From Gemmatimonadota bacterium (GTDB lineage: Bacteria; Gemmatimonadota; Gemmatimonadetes; Gemmatimonadales; JACORV01), in the NCBI GenBank assembly GCA_016179225.1, contig JACORV010000119.1, positions 1-52,439 of the forward strand: a DNA stretch of 52,439 bases. Direction: 5' to 3'. The notes beneath the pieces are model-generated. The model was not told where the DNA came from, ran no database searches, and was given only the letters and a program-made list of their open reading frames with translations. Within the stretch, counting starts at the first letter, position 1. Each line of letters opens with the position of its first letter. Positions 3,765-51,897 of this stretch are shown one piece after another. Both the position numbers and the translations under genes were made by a program.

Positions 3765-6700
3765 TGCCGGACGCGCGCGGCGCACGGCGCGCGCTGTTCG
3801 GCTCGCTGTTCTTCCTCTCCGGGGCGGCCGCCCTCGTCTATGAGCTGATCTGGGTCCGCCAGCTCTACCAGTTCTTCGGCTCCACCATCCATTCGGTTAC
3901 CACCGTCGTGGCCGCGTATATGGGCGGCCTCGGGTTGGGCGCGTATGTCTTGGGCCGGCGCGCGGACCGCGACGCCAATCCCGCGCGGCTCTATGGCGTC
4001 CTCGAGCTCGCGATCGGTGCGTTTGGGATCGCGTCACCCTTCGTCCTCTACGAGGTCGGCCGTGGGTATCTCGCCGTCGCGCGCACCCTGGAGCCCGGGC
4101 TGTGGGCGGCCACCGCGATCAAGTTCGTGTTCGCCTTCGCCGTTCTCCTCGTCCCGACGTTCCTCATGGGCGGCACGCTGCCCATCCTGACGCGCGCCTT
4201 TGCCGGCGAGCGGACCGATCACCTGCGACGGGAGCTGGCGCTGTTCTACGGGCTCAACACGGTGGGCGGCGTGGCGGGCTGCATGCTGGCCGGCTACGCG
4301 CTCATCGAGTACGTCGGGCTCCGGCAGTCCCTGATCGCGACCGGGTTCCTCAACCTCGCGCTGGGCGCCGCGGCCCTCGCGCTCGCGGGGCGAAGGGCGC
4401 TGGAGACGCCCGAGCCGGCGGCCGGCCGGGCGCCGGCCCTCGGCCCCGACCCCGGTGCCGACACGCGGCGGCTCGCACTGTGGCTGATCGCCATCACGGC
4501 CTTCGCGTCGCTGCTGTACGAGATCGCCTGGACCCGCGTGCTGGTCCTGGTGGTCGGCAGCTCGACCTACGCGTTCACGACCATCCTCGCGTGCTTCCTC
4601 TTCGGGATCGGCTTCGGCAGCCTCGTGGCGATCGGCCGTGGCTGGCCCTCGCGCGACCTGCTGATCCGGTCCGCCCTGATCCAGGGCGCGATCGGGGTGC
4701 TCGCCTCACTCCTCTTCCCGTTCTTTGGCGCGCTGCCCGTCTACATCGTCGGTACGTTGCAGGTCTCGTTCCTCACGCCCGCGGAGCTGCTGGTCCTGCA
4801 AGGGCTCGCGGTCGCGGTGGTGGTAGTACCGCCGGCGTTCGGCATGGGGCTCAGCTTCCCGATCCTCGCGGAGCTCGCGGCGGAACGGGCCGGGACGACG
4901 GGGCGAGCATCGGGCCGCGCGTACTTCGCCAATACTCTCGGCAGCATCGCGGGCGCGGTGATCACCGGGTTCCTATTGATCCACCTCATCGGCAGCGAGC
5001 GCACCCTCCAGCTGGGCGTGGTGGTCAACGTGAGCGCCGCGGCGGTCATGGCTTGGTGGCTGTACCGGGAGCGCGCGGCCGGCGGCCTCCCGGTTCCCGT
5101 CGAGCGCCTGCCGCTGGCGATCGGCGCGCTCGCGCTGGTCGTCACCTTCGCCACCCCCAGCTGGTCGCGGCGGCTCCTCGATCGCGGCCCGGCGATCTAC
5201 GGCAAGGAGGAGATGGGACGCTGGGAGCTGGGCAACTTCCTCCGCGGTTACGGCGCCGAGCAGTTGGTGTTCGACGAGGGATGGAACGCGGCGATTTCGG
5301 TCTGGCGGAACGGCAACGCGACCTGGCTCAAGAGCAACGGCAAGGCGGACGCCTCCAGCGTCGCCGACATGAACACGCAGGTGATGGTGGGACTGATGCC
5401 GGCGCTGGCGCACCCCGCGCCCCGGCGCGCGTTCGTGCTCGGGTTCGGGAGCGGCGCCAGCGCGCGGACGGTGGCGGACGTGCCGGGCCTAGAGCGGATC
5501 GACGTCGTGGAGATCGAGCGCGCGGTGCTGCGCGCCGCCCCGCACTTCGCGATCGTGAACCGCGACGTGTTGCACGATCCCCGCGTGCGCGTGATCGAGG
5601 ATGACGCGCGCAGCGCGCTCCAGCTGGCGCGAGAGCCGTACGACATCGTCGTCGCGGAGCCCACCAACCCGTGGATCGCCGGCGTGGCCGCGCTCTTCAC
5701 GCGCGACTTTTTCCGTGTGGTGAGCGCGCACCTCGCCGACGACGGGGTGTTCTCGCAGTGGGTGCAGACGTATCGGGTGCCGCAGGGCGTGATCTCCGTG
5801 GTAGTCGCCAACCTGCGGTCCGTCTTCCCGCACGTCGAACTGTGGTATGCGAATCCCAACGACCTCATCCTCCTCGCCTCACGGCGGCCGATCCGGTGGA
5901 GCCAGGCGCGGGTCGCCGCGCTGATGGCGCCCGGCACACCGCTCGCTCAGAGCTTCCACGATTGGCTGGAGATTGACCGGCCGTCGCAGCTCCTGGGTCG
6001 GTTCCTGCTCGGGGAGCGCGGCACCGCCACGCTGGCGGGAATGGCGCTCTTCCAGCACAGCGACAACCGGCCGTCGCTGGAGTTTGTCGCGGCGCGTGGG
6101 CTCCTCGGCAGCAGCAGCGTGGCCGCCACGTTCGACTCGCTGCTCGGCATTAGGGCCGCCGCCGGCGACACGCTGCCGCAGCTGGCCGACTGGCCGCTCG
6201 CGCCGGGTGAGTGGCAGGCCGCCTACGGGCGGGCGTTGCCGGCCACAAGCCGTCTCGCGCTGCCTTACGCGGAGGAGGCCCTCCGGCTCGCGCCCGCCGA
6301 CGCCGAGCGCCGCGGCGAGTTGGGGCGCGTGCTCGTCGACCGCGACCAGTTCCGGAGCGCGCTGAGCTACCTGCTCCCCGCGCTCGAGAAGCGACCCAAC
6401 GACCCGAGACTCCTGGTGGTCGCCGGCGTGGCGGCCGCGGCGGGCCGCGACCTCGCGGGCGCCCGCGTCTATCTCGAGCGTGCGCGGGCGAGCGGCGGAG
6501 ACTCCGTGTACGCGACGAGCGTGCTGGCGGAGATGTTGGCTGGCGAGGGCGACTACGAGCGCGCCGCCACCGAGGCGCTTCGCGCGCTCCGAGGCCTGCG
6601 CCCCACGATCGCGACGCCGTTCCCCAGCGCGCTGGAAAGCACGGTGAGAAAGCTGGCGCTCCAGGCGCCGCCCGCGGTGGCCGCCCCGGTGCTCGATGCC

Positions 6701-6874
6701 GCCGCGCAGACCCGGCCGTCATGGGATCTCGCGTTCCACGGGGGGGCGCGGGTGTACGCGCGCTGGGGCGGTGACCATTGCGGCCAGGCCGCCCGGCTGG
6801 TGGAGCAGCTGCCGCGGTTCGGTTGGACGGAAACCGAGGCGAACGGTCTACTGAGGCCCTGCGCGCGGCGCTGA
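3764..6874 (+). CDS. Polytopic membrane protein fused to a spermidine-synthase-like (class I SAM-fold) domain, with a TPR-like C-terminus
   Basis: Real start is ATG 3764, overlapping the previous stop (TGATG), inside track ORF 3077..6874. About 480 aa of hydrophobic helices come first. Then VLGFGSGASARTV..VDVVEIERAV..DDARSAL..YDIVVAEPTNPW (SpeE-like fold), then Ala/Leu-rich TPR-like repeats. Confidence 0.75.
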   Translation: MPDARGARRALFGSLFFLSGAAALVYELIWVRQLYQFFGSTIHSVTTVVAAYMGGLGLGAYVLGRRADRDANPARLYGVLELAIGAFGIASPFVLYEVGRGYLAVARTLEPGLWAATAIKFVFAFAVLLVPTFLMGGTLPILTRAFAGERTDHLRRELALFYGLNTVGGVAGCMLAGYALIEYVGLRQSLIATGFLNLALGAAALALAGRRALETPEPAAGRAPALGPDPGADTRRLALWLIAITAFASLLYEIAWTRVLVLVVGSSTYAFTTILACFLFGIGFGSLVAIGRGWPSRDLLIRSALIQGAIGVLASLLFPFFGALPVYIVGTLQVSFLTPAELLVLQGLAVAVVVVPPAFGMGLSFPILAELAAERAGTTGRASGRAYFANTLGSIAGAVITGFLLIHLIGSERTLQLGVVVNVSAAAVMAWWLYRERAAGGLPVPVERLPLAIGALALVVTFATPSWSRRLLDRGPAIYGKEEMGRWELGNFLRGYGAEQLVFDEGWNAAISVWRNGNATWLKSNGKADASSVADMNTQVMVGLMPALAHPAPRRAFVLGFGSGASARTVADVPGLERIDVVEIERAVLRAAPHFAIVNRDVLHDPRVRVIEDDARSALQLAREPYDIVVAEPTNPWIAGVAALFTRDFFRVVSAHLADDGVFSQWVQTYRVPQGVISVVVANLRSVFPHVELWYANPNDLILLASRRPIRWSQARVAALMAPGTPLAQSFHDWLEIDRPSQLLGRFLLGERGTATLAGMALFQHSDNRPSLEFVAARGLLGSSSVAATFDSLLGIRAAAGDTLPQLADWPLAPGEWQAAYGRALPATSRLALPYAEEALRLAPADAERRGELGRVLVDRDQFRSALSYLLPALEKRPNDPRLLVVAGVAAAAGRDLAGARVYLERARASGGDSVYATSVLAEMLAGEGDYERAATEALRALRGLRPTIATPFPSALESTVRKLALQAPPAVAAPVLDAAAQTRPSWDLAFHGGARVYARWGGDHCGQAARLVEQLPRFGWTETEANGLLRPCARR

Positions 6875-43878: not shown

Positions 43879-46800
43879 TCAGTGAAAGTCATGCGACTCC
43901 ACGAACGCGGCGCCGGCCTGCGGGCTGAGCGCCGCGAACTTCTTTCCACGCACGTTGAGCACGCCCTGCTCCTCCTGGAGGATGCCGCGCACCAGGAGCA
44001 GGGGTGAGCGTATGACGAGCCGCCGGTTGGCCTCGAAGAGCCTGGGAGTGATGACGACGTTGGCGAGGCCGGTCTCGTCCTCGAGCGTCACGAAGCAGAA
44101 CCCCTTCGCCGTGCCGGGCCGCTGGCGGCAGATGACGATGCCGGCGACGGTCACCCAGTCGCCGTCGCGCTGGCGCGCGAGGTCGGCGGCGGTGGTGACG
44201 CCGCGCGCGCGCATCACCTCGCGCAGATGGCGCATGGGGTGGCCGGCGGGGGAGAGGCCGGTCACGCGGTAGTCCGCTTCGGTGAGCTCGACCGGCGCGA
44301 GCTGAGGCAGGGGGGCTGGCCGACGGTCTTGCGCCACGGGCGCGAGCGGGCCGGCTGCGCCACGGGCATGTTTGAGCAGCTCCCAGAGCGCCGACCGGCG
44401 GTTGGACCACAGGCTGCCGAAGGCGCCCGCCTCGGCGAGTGCGCGCAGCTGAGCGACGTTGAGCCCGCTCGCGCGTACCCATCCATCGAGCGAGTCGGGG
44501 CGTCGGCCGTCCAGGAGCGGCTCGAGCCGCTCTCTCGCCTTCTCGCCGAGGCCGCGGATGTAACGAAGGCCGATGCGTAGCGCGCGACGAGGGACGAGTC
44601 CTGCGCGGTCCGGCGGGCGCCGTGCGTGCCGTCCGACCGCCGGATCGCGCAGGGCTCGTCCCGAGGACGCGCGCTCGTCATCCGACTCCACGGTGCAATC
44701 CCACGCGCTGCGCATCACGTCCACGCCGCGCACCTCCACGCCGTGACGCCGCGCGTCCTCGACGATCGTGCCCGGCGCGTAGAAGCCCATGGGCTGCGCG
44801 TTGAGGAGCGCGCAGGTGAACTCGACCGGGTAGTAGTGCTTGAGGTACGCAGAGGCGTAGACGAGGAGCGCGAAGCTCGCCGCGTGGCTCTCGGGGAAGC
44901 CGTAATCCGCGAAGGCGGCGATCTGGTTGAAGATGCGACGCGCGACGTCCGGTTCGATCCCGTTCTTCGCCATGCCGTCGATCAGCTTCCGGCAGATCTT
45001 CGCCATCCGCTCGTGCGAGCGCTTGTGGCCCATAGCCCGGCGCAGCTCGTCGGCCTCGCCGGGGGTGAAGCCCGCCGCGGCGATCGCCACCTGCATCCCC
45101 TGCTCCTGGAAGAGCGGCACGCCGAGGGTGCGCTCGAGGATCGGCTCGAGGGAGGGATGCGGGTAGGTGACGGGCTCCTCGCCGGCGCGGCGCCGCAGAT
45201 ACGGGTGCACCATCTCGCCCTGGATGGGGCCGGGGCGGATGAGCGCCACCTCGACCACGAGGTCGTAGAACCTGCGTGGCGCGAGGCGGGGCAGGGTGTT
45301 CATCTGCGCGCGCGATTCCACCTGGAAGACGCCCACGGTATCGGCGCGGCAGAGCATGTCGTAGACGGCGGGGTCGTCCATCGGGAGCCTGGCGAGATCG
45401 ATGACGCCGCCGCAGTGCACGCGGATCAGCCGGATCGCGTCCTGGATCAGGGTGAGCATGCCGAGGCCGAGCAGGTCGATCTTGATGAGCCGGACCGGAT
45501 CGAGGTCGTCCTTGTCCCACTGGATGACGGTGCGCTCCGGCATCGCGGCGGGCTCGATGGGCACGACGGCGGCCAGCGGCTCCTTCGAGAGGACGAAGCC
45601 GCCCACGTGGATCGAGCGGTGGCGCGGGAGCTGGTGCAGCCCGCGCACGACTTCGGCGAGCATGTGGACGCGGTGGTCCTTGGGGTCGAGGTCGGCCGCG
45701 GCGGCGCCGCCTCCGAGCAACCTCTCGCCGGTCTCGCGCGCGCCGTCGCGGTCGGCCTCGTCCGCGAGCTTTTCGGCCTGCTGCACCGAGAAGCCGAGGA
45801 CCCGCGCGGCGTCGCGCACCGCGGCGCGGCCACGGTAGGTGATTGCCTCGCACACCATGGCGGCGTGGTCGCGCCCGTAGCGGCGGTAGACGTACTGGAT
45901 GACCTGCTCGCGGTCCCGGTGCGCGAAGTCGATGTCGATGTCGGGCGCCTCGCGCCGCTCCTCGGAGAGAAAGCGCTCGAAGAGCAACTCCATCCCGACC
46001 GGGTCGATCGCGGTGATGCCGAGGCAGTAACAGACGGCGGAGTTGGCCGCGGACCCACGCCCCTGCGCCAGCACGCCGAGACGGTTCGCCTCGCGCACGA
46101 TGTCCCAGACGATGAGGAAATAGCCCGGGAGGCCCAGACGCTCGATGACGTCCAGCTCGTGGCGGATCTGCTGGCGGTGACGAGCCGTGAGCCGTGAGCC
46201 GTACCGTTCGCGAGCTCCCGCGGCCACCAGCGAGGCGAGGTAGTCGTCGGCCGTCACGCCGGGCGGGAGCGGGAAGGCGGGGAGCGCGGGGGTGAGCTGG
46301 CCCATCCGGAACGCGCACCGCCCGGCGATCTCGCGCGTGGCGGCGAGAGCGTCGGGGTAGTGGCGCCAGTGGTGCGCGGTTTTCTCGGGGCGCTTGAGGT
46401 ACCACTCGCCGTTTGGCCGGAGCAGGGTGCCCGCCTCGTCCAGCGTGGCCTGGTGGCGGAGGCAGGTGAGGGCGTCGTGCACGAGGCGCCCCTTGGGCGT
46501 CGCATAGTGGACGTCGTTCGTCACCAGCCAGGGGAGGTCGAGCGAGCCGGCGAGCGCGATGAGCTTCGGCACGACGGCGCGCTCGGAGGCGAGCGCGTGG
46601 TCCCAGCACTCGACGGCCACGTTGCCCAGGAAGACCTCGGCGAGCCGGCCGAGGAGGGCGCGCGCGCCATCGTCGTCGTCCTTCGCGAGGCGCTGCGGGA
46701 CCTCGCCGAACGGACATCCGGTGAGGCAGAAGAGTCCCGCCGCGTGCCGCTCGACGTCGTCCCAGGACACCGCCGGCGCGCCGCGGTCACCGGCGCGCGC

Positions 46801-47085
46801 GAGGGTGACGAGGCGCGAGAGGTTCCGGTAGCCCGCCTCGTCCATGGCGAGCAGCGTCAGGTGGGACTTTGCGACGGTGGCCTCGAGCCCGATGAGCGCC
46901 TCGACGCCGTACTCCCGCCCCGCCTCGGCCCAGCGCACCGCGCCGCCCAGATCGTCGTGGTCGGTGAGCGCGATCGCCGTCATCCCGATCGCGGCCGCGC
47001 GCGCGATCAGCGTCTCGGGGTTCGACGCGCCGTCGAGGAGGGAGAACCCCGAATGGCAATGCAGCTCGACGTACTCGGCCGCCAC
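43879..47085 (-). CDS. dnaE2: Error-prone DNA polymerase III alpha-like subunit DnaE2 (ImuC)
   Basis: PHP domain ELHCHSGFSLLDGAS, Pol III alpha core and an OB-fold tail. It follows imuA-imuB. GTG 47085 lies 1 nt after the imuB stop and is preferred over track start 47157. Confidence 0.9.
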   Translation of the reverse strand: MAAEYVELHCHSGFSLLDGASNPETLIARAAAIGMTAIALTDHDDLGGAVRWAEAGREYGVEALIGLEATVAKSHLTLLAMDEAGYRNLSRLVTLARAGDRGAPAVSWDDVERHAAGLFCLTGCPFGEVPQRLAKDDDDGARALLGRLAEVFLGNVAVECWDHALASERAVVPKLIALAGSLDLPWLVTNDVHYATPKGRLVHDALTCLRHQATLDEAGTLLRPNGEWYLKRPEKTAHHWRHYPDALAATREIAGRCAFRMGQLTPALPAFPLPPGVTADDYLASLVAAGARERYGSRLTARHRQQIRHELDVIERLGLPGYFLIVWDIVREANRLGVLAQGRGSAANSAVCYCLGITAIDPVGMELLFERFLSEERREAPDIDIDFAHRDREQVIQYVYRRYGRDHAAMVCEAITYRGRAAVRDAARVLGFSVQQAEKLADEADRDGARETGERLLGGGAAAADLDPKDHRVHMLAEVVRGLHQLPRHRSIHVGGFVLSKEPLAAVVPIEPAAMPERTVIQWDKDDLDPVRLIKIDLLGLGMLTLIQDAIRLIRVHCGGVIDLARLPMDDPAVYDMLCRADTVGVFQVESRAQMNTLPRLAPRRFYDLVVEVALIRPGPIQGEMVHPYLRRRAGEEPVTYPHPSLEPILERTLGVPLFQEQGMQVAIAAAGFTPGEADELRRAMGHKRSHERMAKICRKLIDGMAKNGIEPDVARRIFNQIAAFADYGFPESHAASFALLVYASAYLKHYYPVEFTCALLNAQPMGFYAPGTIVEDARRHGVEVRGVDVMRSAWDCTVESDDERASSGRALRDPAVGRHARRPPDRAGLVPRRALRIGLRYIRGLGEKARERLEPLLDGRRPDSLDGWVRASGLNVAQLRALAEAGAFGSLWSNRRSALWELLKHARGAAGPLAPVAQDRRPAPLPQLAPVELTEADYRVTGLSPAGHPMRHLREVMRARGVTTAADLARQRDGDWVTVAGIVICRQRPGTAKGFCFVTLEDETGLANVVITPRLFEANRRLVIRSPLLLVRGILQEEQGVLNVRGKKFAALSPQAGAAFVESHDFH

Positions 47086-47086
47086 T

Positions 47087-48793
47087 TCAATCCCACCACC
47101 CTTCGACGAACCACTTCCGCTCCTTCGGCGACCGGAACAGCAACCAGAGCGCGCCACCCGCGGCGCGTGCCGTGTAGTAGTCGCGCGGCGGCCCGGTGGC
47201 CCGGCCGTCCCACCAGCGGGGAGCGAGCCGCTCCGGTCCGCACCAGTCGGTCACATCGTGCCAGACGTCTTCGTGCCGGAACGCTTCGAGCCCACCACGG
47301 CCAAGCCGGACGCGGATTGGTACCGGTGTTTCGAGCAGTCGGAGCGCGGCGGCGGCGGCCGGCGCGTCGTCGGGGCGGGTGTCGTGCGCTCGCGGCGGCG
47401 GACCGCACGCAGGGCGCCGCCGCTCGCGCCCGACACCCGCCCCTCCTCGCGCCATCGCCGTTTCCACCCACGTGCCGCCGTCCTGTGGCAAGTGCCCGTC
47501 GCGCTCCTGTGGCACGACGACCCCGTCGCTGCCCTCGCTGCCGCGGATGCGATCGAACGCGGCCACCAGCGCGCCCGGATCGACCCAGCGCGACGCGAGG
47601 AGGTTCCCCTGCTCGCCGGAGGCCGGCGCGGTGACCGCGGCGCCGAGCGCGAGGCCGGTGACGGGCTCCGGCAGATGCCACTTCTCGAGCGCGCTGCGGC
47701 AATGATCGAAGAGCGCGTCGGCGTGCGAGGTGGGGCGCGCGGGCCGCACCGCGCGCACGGCCTTCGAGCCGTCGTCGAGGTGGAGCGTGAGCGCCAGCTC
47801 GCGCGCGGCGAGCCCCCGGGCGCGGAGCGCCTCACCCAGGGAGGCGAGCGCGCCTCGGAGCACGAAGAGCAGCGGCTCGGCCGTCGCGACGGGGCCGCCC
47901 AGCTCGACCTCGATCACCGGGAGCGCGTCGTCGCGCGGCGTGGACGGTCCGCGCGGATCGATACCGCGCGCCAGCCGGTGCGCGGCGAGCCCCTGGGGTC
48001 CGAAGCGCGCCTCGACCTCGTCCGCCTCGAGCGCGGCGAGCTGGCCCACGGTCCTAAGACCGAGCGCGGCGAACGTGTCGGCGAGCTCCTCGTCGAGCGC
48101 GAGGAGGGCGAGCGGGAACGGCGCGAGGAACGCGGCGTCGGTGCCCGGGGTCACGACGGCGACGACCGGCGAGGAGGTGGCGGGGCCGCGCCGCAGCGAG
48201 CACTCACGGGGCGCAGCAAGGCGCGGCCCCACCCCGACGAGCGCAAGGTCGTCGCCGTCGTACGTCGCGGCGTAAGCCGCGATGGCCGAGTCGGCGATGC
48301 CGACGCGCGGCTCGCCGTAGCCGAGGCCGCGCGCGAGGCTGAGCAGCTTCCGCGCGAGGGCTTTCTCCTCGCCGAGGCCCGCGGCGTCCACCCACCAGAC
48401 GCCATCCGCAGTCGGCAGACGCGCAGACGCACAGACGCGCAGTGGGCCGCCTTCCCACGCCACGCGCGGGCTGGCAGCGAGCAGCGCGGTCGTCACGTCG
48501 AGCGCGGCGCGCGAGACCTTCTCGTCGTCCCACGGCAGGGCGACTAGGTCGGCGACGAGCGCCTGCGCCTGGGCGAGGGCCATGCCGGTGGCCACGCCCC
48601 GGCGCGCGGCTTCGGCGTCGGCCGCGAGGACGCGGGGCTTGCCGCGGACGTCGGTGAAGACGGCGGTCGGAAGGTCAGGCGGTCGGGCGGTCGGCCGTGC
48701 CGCGTCGCTTGGACCGCCTGTCCGCCTGCCCGCCAGACCGCCTGTCGCGAACCGCCCAATGCGAACGCAGGCGATCCGGCATCGGTAAGCCAA
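47087..48793 (-). CDS. imuB: ImuB (Y-family polymerase-like, catalytically inactive type)
   Basis: Position between imuA and dnaE2. Y-family-like N-terminus (RIACVRIGRFA .. RVLAADAEAARRGVATGM). 568 aa. Confidence 0.8.
   Translation of the reverse strand: MAYRCRIACVRIGRFATGGLAGRRTGGPSDAARPTARPPDLPTAVFTDVRGKPRVLAADAEAARRGVATGMALAQAQALVADLVALPWDDEKVSRAALDVTTALLAASPRVAWEGGPLRVCASARLPTADGVWWVDAAGLGEEKALARKLLSLARGLGYGEPRVGIADSAIAAYAATYDGDDLALVGVGPRLAAPRECSLRRGPATSSPVVAVVTPGTDAAFLAPFPLALLALDEELADTFAALGLRTVGQLAALEADEVEARFGPQGLAAHRLARGIDPRGPSTPRDDALPVIEVELGGPVATAEPLLFVLRGALASLGEALRARGLAARELALTLHLDDGSKAVRAVRPARPTSHADALFDHCRSALEKWHLPEPVTGLALGAAVTAPASGEQGNLLASRWVDPGALVAAFDRIRGSEGSDGVVVPQERDGHLPQDGGTWVETAMARGGAGVGRERRRPACGPPPRAHDTRPDDAPAAAAALRLLETPVPIRVRLGRGGLEAFRHEDVWHDVTDWCGPERLAPRWWDGRATGPPRDYYTARAAGGALWLLFRSPKERKWFVEGWWD
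48661..48743. repeat. Two inverted arrays of four octamers (AGGCGGNC / GNCCGCCT) forming an 83-nt imperfect palindrome at the imuA stop / imuB 5' region
   Basis: 48661-48692 reads CGGCGGTC GGAAGGTC AGGCGGTC GGGCGGTC. After a 19-nt spacer, 48712-48743 reads GACCGCCT GTCCGCCT GCCCGCCA GACCGCCT. 25/32 positions are complementary. Confidence 0.8.
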
Positions 48794-49502
48794 CCGTCAC
48801 CTCCACGGCGCGCGGGGCGCCGCCTTTCTCGATCGTGACGCGCAGCGTGCGCGGTGCGGGCCACGCGCCGCCCTGGCCGGCGAGTGCGGGGATGAAGCCG
48901 GCCGCGTCGGTGCGCGAGTGGACGGTGAGCACGAGCGTGGCGAACGGCGGCCGGCGAGGACGCGCCCGGGGCTCGCCGAGGCGAGCACTAACGGGGCGCA
49001 GCCCGGCGAGTCCCGGGCCATCCGAGCGCAAGGCCGCCGTTCGCACCACCAGCGCCGTGCCCTTGTCCCGCGCGATGCGCTGGAGGCGCAGGGCGACGCG
49101 GCGCGCGGGCGCCGGCGCCTGGTCCACGATCACGAGGCCGAAGGCGCCGCTGCGCAGAAGCACGTCCGTGCACCACCACGCGCTCTCCGTCGCCTTCGGC
49201 CGCACCACCCAGAACGGGCCGAGGACGGCGAGGTGCGCGGCGGCTTGCGGCGCTAGCGTTCGCTCGGCGTCCACGAGCGCCACACCCTCGTCGGCGCGGA
49301 GCGTCGCCTCCGTGAGGGCGAGGAGCAGCGCGGTGCCACCGGTGCCGAGCGGCGCGTTGAGCGCGGTGATCTGCCCGCGCGGGACGCCCCAGGGGAGCGC
49401 GGCGTCGAGCGCCGGGACGCCGAAGGCAACACCGCGGCGCCCGGCCGGGAGGAGGCGCTCGATCTCTTTTGGCAGCAACAACTTGAGGCTCAGTGCGGTC
49501 AT
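48675..49502 (-). CDS. imuA: ImuA (RecA/SulA-like component of the imuA-imuB-dnaE2 mutagenesis cassette)
   Basis: First gene of the cassette. GQITALNAPLGTGGTALLLAL (degenerate P-loop) and GLVIVDQ. The 3' 119 nt overlap imuB in another frame. Confidence 0.75.
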   Translation of the reverse strand: MTALSLKLLLPKEIERLLPAGRRGVAFGVPALDAALPWGVPRGQITALNAPLGTGGTALLLALTEATLRADEGVALVDAERTLAPQAAAHLAVLGPFWVVRPKATESAWWCTDVLLRSGAFGLVIVDQAPAPARRVALRLQRIARDKGTALVVRTAALRSDGPGLAGLRPVSARLGEPRARPRRPPFATLVLTVHSRTDAAGFIPALAGQGGAWPAPRTLRVTIEKGGAPRAVEVTVGLPMPDRLRSHWAVRDRRSGGQADRRSKRRGTADRPTA

Positions 49503-49525: not shown

Positions 49526-49554
49526 GATGTACCCGAATAAAACCCGAAAGTCAA
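49526..49554 (-). promoter_or_regulatory. imuA promoter with an AT-rich direct-repeat operator candidate filling the spacer
   Basis: Minus strand reads T-tract, TTGACT (49554-49549), TTCGGGTTTTATTCGGG (17 nt), TACATC (49531-49526), 23 nt, ATG. Confidence 0.5.
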
Positions 49555-49675: not shown

Positions 49676-49692
49676 AACTGCACGAACTGCAC
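49676..49692 (+). repeat. Left copy of a 17-bp perfect inverted repeat AACTGCACGAACTGCAC
   Basis: Exact reverse complement of 50161-50177. It lies 16 nt upstream of the HTH ORF start. Confidence 0.85.
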
Positions 49693-49708: not shown

Positions 49709-50116
49709 GTGAGGCGCCTCCGAGTGCGTCCGCCCACGCTCCCGGCGACCCTCCTGCGAGACGCGGTCGCGCGCCAGCTCGCCACCGTGTCGCTGCGCGG
49801 GGCTGCGGCGGAGATCGGGCTCAGCCCGAACGCGCTCCGCAACTTCCTGAACGGCGCCGAGCCGCGGATCGCGACGCGGGCCAAGCTGGAGCGCTGGCTG
49901 GCGAGTCGCCGCATGCGGGAACGCGGCCCCGGCGTCGGGCGCCTCGTCGAGCTCCTGGGCGAGCTGGGCGCCGAACTCTCTCCCGGGCAGACCGCAGCCC
50001 TCGGCGAGCATACGGTGCGCTTCCTCGTCAACGCCTACGAGGCCCGGCGCCTCCCGCCGCCGCGATGGGTGCGGGAGTTGGCCAACCACTACAAGACTTC
50101 GCACCACGGGTCCTGA
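49709..50116 (+). CDS. Small HTH-containing protein, unknown family, divergent from imuA
   Basis: 135 aa. GTG start is preceded by GGGGGG. The HTH-like segment is SLRGAAAEIGLSPNALRNFLNG. Coding-like composition. Confidence 0.55.
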   Translation: MRRLRVRPPTLPATLLRDAVARQLATVSLRGAAAEIGLSPNALRNFLNGAEPRIATRAKLERWLASRRMRERGPGVGRLVELLGELGAELSPGQTAALGEHTVRFLVNAYEARRLPPPRWVRELANHYKTSHHGS

Positions 50117-50160
50117 GCGCGCCGAGTTGACCGCGCGCGATGGCCGAGCGTAGGTTAGCC

Positions 50161-50177
50161 GTGCAGTTCGTGCAGTT
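50161..50177 (-). repeat. Right copy of the 17-bp inverted repeat, followed by palindrome TGCAC-CCCT-GTGCA (50177-50190)
   Basis: GTGCAGTTCGTGCAGTT. Located between a TTGACC-N18-TAGGTT promoter-like pair (50125-50154) and the receiver gene start. Confidence 0.85.
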
Positions 50178-50194
50178 GCACCCCTGTGCACACC

Positions 50195-50590
50195 ATGACG
50201 GACCTTCTCGACCGGCTTGCCGCCCGCCCGCGCGTCCTCGTTGTGGAGGACCAGCCGCAGCTGCGCGCTGCCCTCAGCCGGTTCCTCCGGCTGAAGGGCT
50301 GCGACGTCGAGGCCGCGGCGGACGGCGCGGAGGGCCTCGTGAAGCTGACTTGCTACCATTTCGACGCCGTGGTGAGCGACGTCCAGATGCCGAAGCTCGA
50401 CGGGCCGGCCTTCTACGAGCACGCTGTGGCGTTGCGCCCATACCTCCGGCGGCGGTTCCTGTTCTGCAGCGCCCTGCCGCCTCCCCCGTCCCTCGCGACG
50501 GATCCCGCGCTCCGCTTTTACGCCAAGCCCATCGAGCTGAGCGACCTTTGGGCGAGGCTCAGCGACCTGCTCGGGGAGCAGCAGCCTTAG
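50195..50590 (+). CDS. Stand-alone response-regulator receiver (CheY-like)
   Basis: VLVVEDQPQLR, VVSDVQMPKLDG, and AKP near the C-terminus. Start is ATG 50195 or GTG 50186. Confidence 0.8.
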   Translation: MTDLLDRLAARPRVLVVEDQPQLRAALSRFLRLKGCDVEAAADGAEGLVKLTCYHFDAVVSDVQMPKLDGPAFYEHAVALRPYLRRRFLFCSALPPPPSLATDPALRFYAKPIELSDLWARLSDLLGEQQP

Positions 50591-51603
50591 AGCGGCATCT
50601 CCCACTGGATCGCTTCCTCCGCCCGCTGGCCCGTTGATCCGCCGGCCCGCTCGTCCGCCGCCTCGAACCCGACCTTTCTCTGCAGCCGCGCCACGCGCCG
50701 CTTGAGCGCGGCTGTGTACGCCGGCGTGACGAAGCCCCGCGCGTCGAACGCCCGCTCGTAGCGGTCGAGCAGTGAGGGGAACTCCTGCGCCACCACCGGC
50801 AGGAAGCGGCGACGGATCGGCGGGTACAGCCGCAGCGGGTCGGCGCGGGCGAATGCCGCGCCGGCGTCCTTCGCCCCGCGCATCAGCGCCTCGAGGTGCG
50901 GCACGTCGTCGGTGATCCCCGGCAGCACCGGCGCGATCAGCACCCCGGCGTGGAGCCCCGCCCGCACCAGCTTCGCGAGCGCCTCCAGCCGCACCGCCGG
51001 CGTCGGCGAGCGGACCTCGAGCTTCCGAACCAACAGCGCGTCCATGCTGATGAGCGAGACGATCACCGTGACGCGGCTCCGTTCGGCGAGCCTGAGCAGC
51101 ACGTCCACGTCGCGCGTGACGAGCGGCGACTTCGTGATGATCCCGACGCCGAGCCCGCGGACCTGCGCCAGCCGCTCCAGCACTCGCCGCGTAATCCGGA
51201 ACGTCCGCTCGGCGGGCTGGTACGGGTCGGTCGCGGTGCCGATGACGATGGTGTGGCCGCCCAGGCGCGAGGGCCGCGCCGTGAGCGCCGCGATCTCCGG
51301 CGCCGCCACCTTCACGAAGATCTGCCGCTCGAACGTCTCGTCGTCCCAGACGGCGGGACCCAGCGCGCCCCTCGCGCTCCCCCGCTCGACGACGTACCGG
51401 TGGGCGTAACGGGCGTAGCAGTACGAGCAGCCGAACTCGCAGCCGACGTACGGGTTCAGCGACCAGAAGTTCATCCCCGTCTGCTGCGGCGAGTTCAGGA
51501 CGGACTTGATCGGCAGCTCCACGAACCGCGTTCCGCGCCGCCGCTCATCAAGCACGGCCCAACCCTGGCCGCCTGACCGCCTGTCCGCCTGACCGCCTTC
51601 CAT
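50587..51603 (-). CDS. Radical SAM protein of the SplB-like 'DNA repair photolyase' (COG1533 / Rv2578c-like) type
   Basis: Start is ATG 51603 inside track ORF 50587..51684. NPYVGCEFGCSYCYARY contains the CxxxCxxC motif. Confidence 0.8.
   Translation of the reverse strand: MEGGQADRRSGGQGWAVLDERRRGTRFVELPIKSVLNSPQQTGMNFWSLNPYVGCEFGCSYCYARYAHRYVVERGSARGALGPAVWDDETFERQIFVKVAAPEIAALTARPSRLGGHTIVIGTATDPYQPAERTFRITRRVLERLAQVRGLGVGIITKSPLVTRDVDVLLRLAERSRVTVIVSLISMDALLVRKLEVRSPTPAVRLEALAKLVRAGLHAGVLIAPVLPGITDDVPHLEALMRGAKDAGAAFARADPLRLYPPIRRRFLPVVAQEFPSLLDRYERAFDARGFVTPAYTAALKRRVARLQRKVGFEAADERAGGSTGQRAEEAIQWEMPL
51567..51598. repeat. Four tandem octamers GGCCGCCT GACCGCCT GTCCGCCT GACCGCCT in the 5' end of the radical SAM gene
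   Basis: Same octamer family as 48712-48743. 51575-51597 matches 48712-48734 at 22/23 positions. Confidence 0.8.
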
Positions 51604-51746
51604 CACGCACACCTCCCCCACCCGCAGACCGGGCAGTAGATGCACCCGTTGGCTGGCACCGTTCCAGCGCCGCAGTCGGGACACGGAGAAGCCGGTGGCC
51701 TTCCGCTCAGCGATTTCGGAACTTCAATCATGGCAAGCGGTTCCAT
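51603..51746 (-). CDS. Small zinc-ribbon protein (47 aa, two CPxCG knuckles) translationally coupled to the radical SAM gene
   Basis: MEPLAMIEVPKSLSGRPPASPCPDCGAGTVPANGCIYCPVCGWGRCA. The stop TGA overlaps the radical SAM ATG (TGATG). This is the tail of track ORF 51603..52013. GC3 of the first 20 codons is low, so the exact start is uncertain (alternative ATG 51731). Confidence 0.55.
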   Translation of the reverse strand: MEPLAMIEVPKSLSGRPPASPCPDCGAGTVPANGCIYCPVCGWGRCA

Positions 51747-51758
51747 GTAACGACCCCA

Positions 51759-51787
51759 ACTATCTTCGGTTTTTATTCGGGTTTCCA
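51759..51787 (-). promoter_or_regulatory. Second copy of the AT-rich direct-repeat element, again filling a 17-nt promoter spacer
   Basis: Minus strand reads TGGAAA (51787-51782), CCCGAATAAAAACCGAA (17 nt), GATAGT (51764-51759), 12 nt, ATG 51746. The element is inverted relative to the imuA copy. Confidence 0.45.
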
Positions 51788-51897
51788 GGGTCAATATAAG
51801 CCATGGGCACGACGGCGCAAGGGTGTGTAGCCGGGGCTTCCGGAGAGGGCTATTTTGGGCGGGCCCGAGCCCACCGATCCGACCGGGAGGAACGCCC

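Follow-up and report, generated by a model that had tools for sequence, protein, structure and literature searches.

A direct repeat in the imuA-imuB-dnaE2 promoter as a predicted LexA operator of Gemmatimonadota

We analyzed contig JACORV010000119.1 of a Gemmatimonadota bacterium (order Gemmatimonadales) over its full length of 52,439 nucleotides (hereafter the window; 70% GC) and focused on a 17-bp direct repeat, TTCGG-N6-TTCGG(G), located in the promoter of the translesion-synthesis operon imuA-imuB-dnaE2. With a probability of about 0.85, we consider this repeat to be the SOS operator (LexA box) of Gemmatimonadota. The motif is conserved in metagenomic relatives of the window, is associated with translesion genes across the phylum and stands in front of lexA in Gemmatimonadales, where the encoded protein has the canonical features of LexA. 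A preliminary description of the locus, based on the letters of the window, had proposed a LexA-type operator responding to DNA damage at the imuA promoter, and its prediction is strongly supported by the conservation in relatives and the presence at lexA. The case for a LexA operator is strong because the motif is found at lexA of Gemmatimonadales and at lexA and recA of Patescibacteria, and because the two groups nearly share the recognition helix of the repressor. From these sequence patterns, we infer the physical binding of LexA, the transcription start sites and the inducibility by damage.

The repeat at two promoters and in relatives

On the minus strand, the sequence 5′ of imuA reads TTTTTTT, GACC, TTGACT, TTCGGGTTTTATTCGGG, TACATC, 23 nt and the ATG at 49502, in agreement with the promoter layout proposed earlier. 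The spacer between the two hexamers is, also as described, a direct repeat TTCGGG-N5-TTCGGG with a period of 11 bp. Searching with up to three mismatches, we found the 18-mer TTCGGGTTTTATTCGGGT (49531-49548, minus strand) only twice among the 52,439 bases, the second copy, TTCGGTTTTTATTCGGGT, differing at one position and lying on the plus strand at 51765-51782; the earlier claim of a single further near-identical copy was thus correct. One hundred dinucleotide-preserving shuffles contained no match, and the relaxed core with one mismatch occurred elsewhere in the window at chance level (8 found, 4.5 expected). The flanks of the two copies are alike in nothing outside the 18-mer, so the pair is neither a duplicated segment nor a mobile repeat; with no copies expected and no flank similarity, both chance and a mobile repeat were ruled out as the origin of the pair.

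The second copy has the opposite orientation to the first relative to transcription and belongs to an operon that starts with a short Zn-ribbon open reading frame (ORF) followed by a radical-SAM gene. The preliminary description had placed this copy as the 17-nt spacer of a promoter TGGAAA-17-GATAGT. These hexamers are present but, unlike CTTGCG-N17-TATATT, they are not conserved in relatives, and we dropped them in favor of the latter, downstream of whose –10 element the repeat is found. The operon had been annotated as a radical-SAM 'DNA repair photolyase' operon, and the radical-SAM gene proved to be of the Rv2578c/PA0069 (SplB-like) type; SplB is a documented member of the SOS regulon in several phyla (PMC8565304). 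Among the loci of relatives, identified here by L numbers, CTTGCG-N17/18-(T/C)ATATT is kept in L001, L002, L005, L006, L011, L012, L014, L135 and L136, and the second site itself is conserved in L135, L136, L011, L012 and L014 and also in L170, L238 and L249.

The homologues recovered by protein search with the ImuA of the window carry the names Gemmatimonadales or Gemmatimonadetes. In these relatives, the region in front of imuA, or of the gene that opens its operon, does contain the motif. In the closest one (L135, 84% ImuA identity), the imuA promoter reads TTGAGC-TTCGGTGTTTCTTCGGG-TATGGT, retaining the TTCGG cores and the spacer position of the window site and differing in three central bases, while L137 has a half-degenerate copy of the repeat. 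A clade at ~65% identity has an operon consisting of the Zn-ribbon, radical-SAM, imuA, imuB and further genes, divergent from DUF47-PHO4; in front of it stand four pentamers phased at 11 bp, which together form the composite A-TCGGT-TTATAT-TCGGT-TACATG-ACCGA-ATAAAT-ACCGA. The four-unit composite TCGGT-N6-TCGGT-N6-ACCGA-N6-ACCGA is found in L001, L002, L006 and L137 and is placed within and just past the conserved CTTGCG-N17-TATATT promoter. The closer relatives L011, L012, L014, L135 and L136 keep only the distal pair, ACCCGAA(G/T)AAAA(A/C)CCGAA, just downstream of CTTGCG-N17/18-(T/C)ATATT, and the radical-SAM promoter of L011, L012, L014 and L136 contains ACCCGAAGAAAA(A/C)CCGAA; this pair is homologous to the second window site. 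Across the relatives found by ImuA, the TTCGG cores are invariant and the centre is variable, and we judge the element to be conserved at the level of its cores. As an architectural detail, the composite (L006 4795-4834; L001 253-292; L137 4637-4676; L241 1463-1503) combines two direct and two inverted pentamers, with the first pair centred on the –10 element TATATT.

The motif at lexA and across genomes

Searches with queries from Escherichia coli, Bacillus subtilis and Patescibacteria detected neither lexA nor recA in the window or in any of the translesion-gene loci fetched, and the remainder of the 52-kb window contains no further gene of the classical SOS set. We reached the gene by another route: the LexA of locus L142 seeded a protein search, and one of the matches then seeded a search of 50%-identity representatives, among which we picked those with a Patescibacteria-like DNA-binding domain and an amino-acid composition typical of high GC. 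Among them, P0285/P0391 is named 'transcriptional repressor LexA [Gemmatimonadales bacterium]', and its relatives, 80–94% identical, include several named Gemmatimonadales or Gemmatimonadota. The Gemmatimonadales lexA, retrieved by its protein and hence independently of the motif, was traced to 18 contigs.

In all five distinct upstream sequences (L258, L266, L267, L268 and L269), lexA is preceded by two TTCGG-N6-TTCGG sites at most 70 nt from its start. The first site exactly fills the spacer between the –35 and –10 elements and the second follows the –10. Each 8.6-kb lexA locus contains no further TTCGG-N6-TTCGG, and a first-order Markov control gives approximately one match per 317 kb. The gene is divergent from trpC in four of the five sequences, and in L258-L275 (~3930-4000) the intergenic region between lexA and trpC (IGPS) is only ~70 bp long and mostly taken up by the two predicted boxes. 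The lexA operators keep the TTCGG cores and have GC-rich centres, and position counts over 24 sites define the conserved determinant as TTCGG-N4-T-N-TTCGG. The description of the element as AT-rich therefore applies to the operators at translesion-polymerase genes and not to the motif itself, whose lexA versions have GC-rich centres. In alignment, the Gemmatimonadales LexA shows the domains LexA_DNA_bind (PF01726) and Peptidase_S24 (PF00717), a VAAG cleavage site, the serine in GDSM and the lysine in TVKK. Its recognition helix, SLATVHEHL (SLATVHEHLTNLERKGYI), is nearly identical to SLATVHEHLGFLEDRGFI of the Patescibacteria LexAs associated with the motif, at an overall identity of ~40–43% between the two groups.

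To survey the motif more widely, we performed an exact-pattern scan with TTCGGKTTTTMTTCGGGT over 185,579 species genomes, one per species, which gave at least 120 matches, 120 of them listed. Gemmatimonadota (Gemmatimonadales and Longimicrobiales) account for 26 of the 120 matches listed, at a locus GC of 42–75%; the number of copies of this T-rich 18-mer expected by chance in such GC-rich genomes is well below one. We placed the sites in the 26 loci by tblastn with the window proteins and by Pfam. Approximately 21 of the 26 listed are directly upstream of imuA, imuB, dnaE2 or Zn-ribbon/radical-SAM genes, and translesion or radical-SAM genes follow ~23; other placements are given in Table 1, and of these the sites in L185, L168 and L208 are possible extra members of the regulon. 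One of the placements concerns a 96-amino-acid (aa) ORF with a WRIDDEWW motif and no Pfam match, which is found repeatedly in Longimicrobiales cassettes, between imuB and dnaE2, and also alone behind a predicted LexA box (L176 2892-3182, L160 1442-1705, L159 4130-4381, L156 and L157).

At ~17 of the 26 listed sites, TTCGG is oriented toward the gene, with many sites between TTGnnn and TAnnnT hexamers; ~6 of the 26 and the second window site are oriented the other way and follow closely on a –10. In 10 of the 26 matches listed, as in the lexA promoters, the repeat directly adjoins a TTGnnn hexamer. The occurrence of both orientations favors a protein-binding site at the level of DNA. The same data bear on the possibility that the element is a chance repeat, an effect of promoter UP or spacer composition, or a transcribed RNA element, as its T-rich sequence and the position of the second site, which would fall in the 5′ untranslated region, might suggest. 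We consider this probability negligible: no copies are expected, the lexA operators keep the TTCGG cores around GC-rich centres, the element is used in both orientations relative to transcription and it has no Rfam match.

The 94 matches listed outside Gemmatimonadota are more heterogeneous, and about half of them look like chance, being inside genes. A further 43 of the 94 have a TTG at the –35 position, and 23 of those 43 also have TAnnnT at the –10. Most of these promoter-associated matches belong to Patescibacteria (Shapiro-, Kerfeld-, Curtiss-, Saccharibacteria and others) and to metagenome-assembled genomes (MAGs) with doubtful labels. In these genomes, the motif is found 5–128 nt upstream of lexA (L158, L252, L196, L228, L233, L223 and L229), often in two copies, 50–138 nt upstream of recA (L155, L221 and L234) and in front of a Y-family polymerase gene (L193), usually within a TTGACn-[17 nt]-TATAnT promoter. 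In Kerfeld-, Shapiro- and Saccharibacteria and in other MAGs of the candidate phyla radiation (CPR), lexA and recA carry the sequence TTCGG(G/T)TTTT(A/C)TTCGG. Judged by sequence, it is such a set of downstream genes that marks a LexA box, and the motif does stand upstream of canonical SOS genes, at lexA in Gemmatimonadales and at lexA and recA in Patescibacteria. The suggestion that the motif is lineage-specific did not survive the scan, as the same 18-mer appears in the same promoter architecture in CPR genomes.

Several further patterns emerged from these matches. At many loci outside Gemmatimonadota, the motif lies upstream of a conserved gene of 86–96 aa; in CPR genomes, a family of 83–97 aa (PVSV...W.GR.Y.I.K.GLHH) is found directly behind predicted LexA boxes, often divergent from lexA (L143 1418-1675, L171 3536-3823, L152 2053-2301 and ~25 others), and appears to be a core SOS gene of these genomes that is as yet uncharacterised. 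A DnaA-box-like sequence, TTATCCACA, lies at most ~70 nt from a predicted LexA box in 12 of the 94 loci listed (L155, L158, L191, L196, L198, L220, L223, L226, L228, L229, L233 and L252), often fused to a TTCGG unit as TTCGGTTATCCACA. In Paenibacillus azoreducens (L183 1115-1198), the 11-mer TTTTATTCGGG is repeated in tandem and gives multiple matches to the scan pattern; the array looks like an unrelated microsatellite. The use of the motif by Planctomycetota was unsupported: the motif of L142 is 582 bp from lexA, and L276, the one related lexA locus scanned, lacks it near lexA. Among matches on viral contigs, 1 of 126 had the promoter architecture, and we regard the phage sites as chance matches.

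The association with translesion synthesis could also mean that the protein on the repeat is another conserved regulator, specific to the cassettes of translesion polymerases and perhaps of XRE or WYL type, which would count lexA among its targets. The Gemmatimonadota exact matches listed do concern almost entirely translesion-synthesis genes and never recA, and certain other phyla have small genes for XRE-type helix-turn-helix (HTH) proteins behind the motif (L199, L245, L180 and L217). However, none of the genes that might encode such a regulator accompanies the sites consistently, whereas two copies of the motif are present at every Gemmatimonadales lexA locus examined, the motif stands at lexA and recA of Patescibacteria, and two phyla sharing the motif also share a near-identical LexA recognition helix. 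Autoregulation of lexA is the hallmark of a LexA box, and we think a dedicated regulator quite unlikely.

Gene context and proposed regulation

The features of the window and the additional sites are collected in Table 1. The second operon opens with the Zn-ribbon ORF, which is conserved among relatives at 48–58% identity and a length of 47–49 aa. We had to consider a frameshifted radical-SAM gene, and this was ruled out, the upstream piece being this separate conserved ORF. The ORF has a weak Pfam match to Auto_anti-p27, and simple ORF lists do not link it to the radical-SAM operon.

Table 1. Predicted operators, promoters and genes of the window, and selected sites at other loci (L numbers)
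Feature	Position	Strand	Remarks
LexA box 1 (predicted)	49532-49548	-	TTCGGGTTTTATTCGGG; direct repeat TTCGG-N6-TTCGG occupying the 17-nt spacer of the imuA promoter
-35 element, imuA promoter (predicted)	49549-49554	-	TTGACT; TTGnnn next to the repeat also at other Gemmatimonadota sites
-10 element, imuA promoter (predicted, sub-consensus)	49526-49531	-	TACATC; relatives have TAnnnT, e.g., TATGGT, TACTGT, TATTGT, TACCTT
LexA box 2 (predicted)	51765-51782	+	TTCGGTTTTTATTCGGGT; gene strand reads ACCCGAATAAAAACCGAA; begins 10 nt past the -10, ends 18 nt before the Zn-ribbon ORF
Conserved promoter of Zn-ribbon/radical-SAM operon (function inferred)	51793-51821	-	CTTGCG 51821-51816, N17, TATATT 51798-51793
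dnaE2	43879-47157	-	Error-prone Pol III alpha homolog; Pfam PHP, DNA_pol3_alpha, finger and HHH_6 domains
imuB	47087-48793	-	Y-family polymerase-like; Pfam IMS_C and IMS; ORF overlaps imuA, start codon uncertain
imuA	48675-49502	-	RecA-like, 275 aa; Pfam RecA and NCBIfam ImuA_translesion; first gene of imuA-imuB-dnaE2; ATG at 49502
XRE-type HTH protein gene	49709-50116	+	135 aa; divergent from imuA at 206 bp; Pfam/NCBIfam survey
Receiver-only response regulator gene	50186-50590	+	Adjoins the XRE-type HTH gene; Pfam/NCBIfam survey
Radical-SAM gene	50587-51684	-	Rv2578c/PA0069 (SplB-like, COG1533) type; Pfam and NCBIfam
Zn-ribbon ORF	51603-51746	-	47 aa, CxxC...CxxC; opens the second operon predicted to be regulated; overlaps the radical-SAM start
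DUF47/PhoU_div gene	from ~51898	+	Pfam/NCBIfam survey
lexA promoter, L258			CTTGCTC-TTCGGTCAGTATTCGGG-TACCTT-AG-TTCGGAATCCGTTCGG
lexA promoter, L266			CTTGCGG-TTCGGGCTGTGTTCGGG-TACCGT-TA-TTCGGGCTCTCTTCGG
lexA promoter, L268			CTTGCCC-TTCGGCTGGTATTCGGG-TAATGT-AA-TTCGGCCTCTGTTCGG
Site in L148			Upstream of a Y-family polymerase
Site in L176			Upstream of the 96-aa ORF of Longimicrobiales cassettes
Site in L185	7821-7849		Upstream of dnaG primase; three TTCGG units
Site in L168	750-767		Upstream of a holin-X-like gene
Site in L208	1351-1368		Near an NfeD/ClpP-like gene

A pair of genes for the XRE-type HTH protein and the receiver-only response regulator is inserted between the radical-SAM gene and imuA in the window, L012, L135 and L137, and is missing in L001-L009 and L136. 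In the window, the pair (49709-50590) splits an ancestral operon of Zn-ribbon, radical-SAM, imuA, imuB and dnaE2 that is intact in other relatives; after the insertion, imuA has its own promoter with a predicted LexA box in the window and L135. The HTH protein, which has no PDB relative and no NCBIfam match, might itself bind the repeat, perhaps under the control of the adjacent response regulator, given that its gene is divergent from imuA and only 206 bp away. We find this very unlikely, as relatives without the pair have the repeat at this operon too, as it also occurs across the phylum and in other phyla, and as another conserved repeat, GTGCAGTTCGTGCAGTT, stands in front of both the HTH and the response regulator gene and is the better candidate for the HTH operator. 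This second direct repeat occurs in two copies in the window, with none expected, immediately upstream of the XRE-HTH gene (49676-49692, minus strand) and of the response regulator gene (50161-50177, plus strand), and also in L012 (3835-3852 and ~4306-4325), L135 (~2812-2828) and L137 (~6805-6821); in L011 and L012, it is the sole conserved element before imuA. By sequence, GTGCAGTTCGTGCAGTT is a candidate operator of the XRE-HTH protein.

The genes on the other side of the second site pointed to yet another family of regulators. The 11-bp period of the repeat, and the location of the second site and its homologues in an intergenic region shared with DUF47 (PhoU_div) and PHO4 genes, would suit a Pho-box-like site for a response regulator of the OmpR/PhoB family driving the divergent DUF47-PitA phosphate transporter operon. 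A phosphate gene adjoins only the sites next to radical-SAM genes, however, and neither the first window site nor most Gemmatimonadota sites, including those at imuA, dnaE2 and lexA. The second site lies immediately downstream of the radical-SAM promoter and at least ~70 bp upstream of the conserved –10 region of DUF47, and the motif is also found at lexA and recA, leaving a Pho box highly improbable.

We return to LexA as the predicted ligand and outline how regulation would proceed. In the uninduced cell, a LexA dimer would occupy both TTCGG units, whose 11-bp offset puts them on the same side of the double helix. The repressor bound at imuA would fill the spacer between TTGACT and TACATC and exclude RNA polymerase, and at the Zn-ribbon/radical-SAM operon, the site in the opposite orientation would cover approximately positions +4 to +21 and block open-complex formation or promoter escape. 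Following DNA damage, RecA filaments on single-stranded DNA would stimulate the self-cleavage of LexA at the conserved Ala-Gly bond, and both operons would be derepressed, one yielding the ImuA-ImuB-DnaE2 mutasome and the other the SplB-like radical-SAM repair enzyme.

Several observations weigh against a LexA operator. The lexA evidence comes from Gemmatimonadales genomes other than that of the window. A strict sigma-70 scan called no promoter in the upstream region of imuA, where the –10 element is weak, because TACATC lacks the final T. L011 and L012, which have the same gene order as the window, lack the repeat in front of imuA. Since the scan pattern required a T-rich centre and a terminal T, the statistics on promoter architecture are biased. 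Finally, recA, uvrA and other canonical SOS genes were absent among the 26 Gemmatimonadota exact matches listed, although those loci were not searched for directly, and the regulon seen here consequently centres on translesion synthesis.

Two more general ideas follow from the distribution of the sites. Speculatively, the near-consensus, AT-centred operators of the mutasome genes, as opposed to the weaker double operators of lexA, may reflect a tight and late derepression of mutagenesis. More broadly, and only as a tentative scenario that we think rather doubtful, a single class of LexA, with the helix S-L-A-T-V-H-E-H and TTCGG-N6-TTCGG in a 17-bp spacer, could be common to Gemmatimonadota and CPR/Patescibacteria, representing either a very old direct-repeat LexA lineage or an interphylum transfer of lexA followed by a re-capture of the translesion genes; in the lineage of the window, the ancestral SOS operon would then have been split by the XRE-HTH and receiver module with its own operator (two copies of GTGCAGTT), possibly placing the mutasome under the dual control of SOS and a phosphorelay.

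Comparison with known LexA boxes

By analogy, the element would work like every LexA box and would be a member of the direct-repeat minority of LexA motifs. The closest counterpart is in Patescibacteria, for which Sanchez-Osuna, Barbe and Erill reportedly described a direct-repeat LexA-binding motif in 2017 (Environ Microbiol). Our comparison is with our own scan rather than with the published consensus: there, the same 18-mer lies upstream of lexA, recA and a Y-family polymerase, mostly in TTGACn-17-TATAnT promoters, and the LexAs have a recognition helix near-identical to that of the Gemmatimonadales protein. The difference is that Patescibacteria are another phylum and that the targets seen here in Gemmatimonadota are dominated by imuA-imuB-dnaE2 and radical-SAM operons. 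Based on sequence, the Gemmatimonadota and Patescibacteria motifs of our scan are almost certainly the same.

The palindromic boxes of the canonical SOS systems are CTGT-N8-ACAG in E. coli and CGAAC-N4-GTTCG in Gram-positive bacteria. They involve the same regulator family, the same logic of promoter occlusion and RecA-stimulated self-cleavage and the same classes of targets, but they are inverted repeats, in contrast to the direct repeat here. The Gram-positive half-site GTTCG overlaps TTCGG, and the B. subtilis helix SSSTVHGHL resembles SLATVHEHL.

Binding of LexA to direct repeats has precedents in Alphaproteobacteria (PMC8565304) and, supported by electrophoretic mobility shift assays (EMSAs), in Balneolaeota (PMC7739468); direct-repeat motifs have arisen several times, the 2017 study of Patescibacteria being among the instances cited (PMC7739468). 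The box GTTC-N7-GTTC of Alphaproteobacteria, and of Acidobacterium, is bound by LexA and controls imuA-imuB-dnaE2 cassettes (PMC8565304; PMC3919608). As in the Gemmatimonadota element, the units repeat directly every 11 bp. In Alphaproteobacteria, GTTC is required and GG is not, whereas TTCGG is the invariant part in Gemmatimonadota, conserved in the units of the 24 sites counted, and the base in front of it varies among the scan matches and lexA promoters inspected. Of the likeness to this box pointed out in the preliminary description, the geometry thus holds and the conserved bases do not, as neither unit contains a conserved GTTC. The LexA motif of Balneolaeota, a lineage of the FCB group, is the EMSA-validated direct repeat TTACACATATTTTWTACATA, with a regulon that includes translesion polymerases and a radical-SAM protein (PMC7739468); the repeat form and the targets are similar to those found here, and the sequence is unrelated to TTCGG-N6-TTCGG.

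In the literature searched, no LexA motif is described for Gemmatimonadota, and the string TTCGG-N6-TTCGG was in none of its papers; the element appears to be an undescribed SOS box of this phylum. It provides a concrete and testable SOS box for a phylum abundant in soil and would allow a damage-inducible regulon to be read from any Gemmatimonadota genome with TTCGG-N6-TTCGG, including the mutagenic ImuA-ImuB-DnaE2 polymerase, a driver of stress-induced mutation. That Gemmatimonadota and Patescibacteria share the specificity and the recognition helix is a further data point on how LexA has repeatedly changed or exchanged its motif, with the translesion polymerases staying among its core targets.

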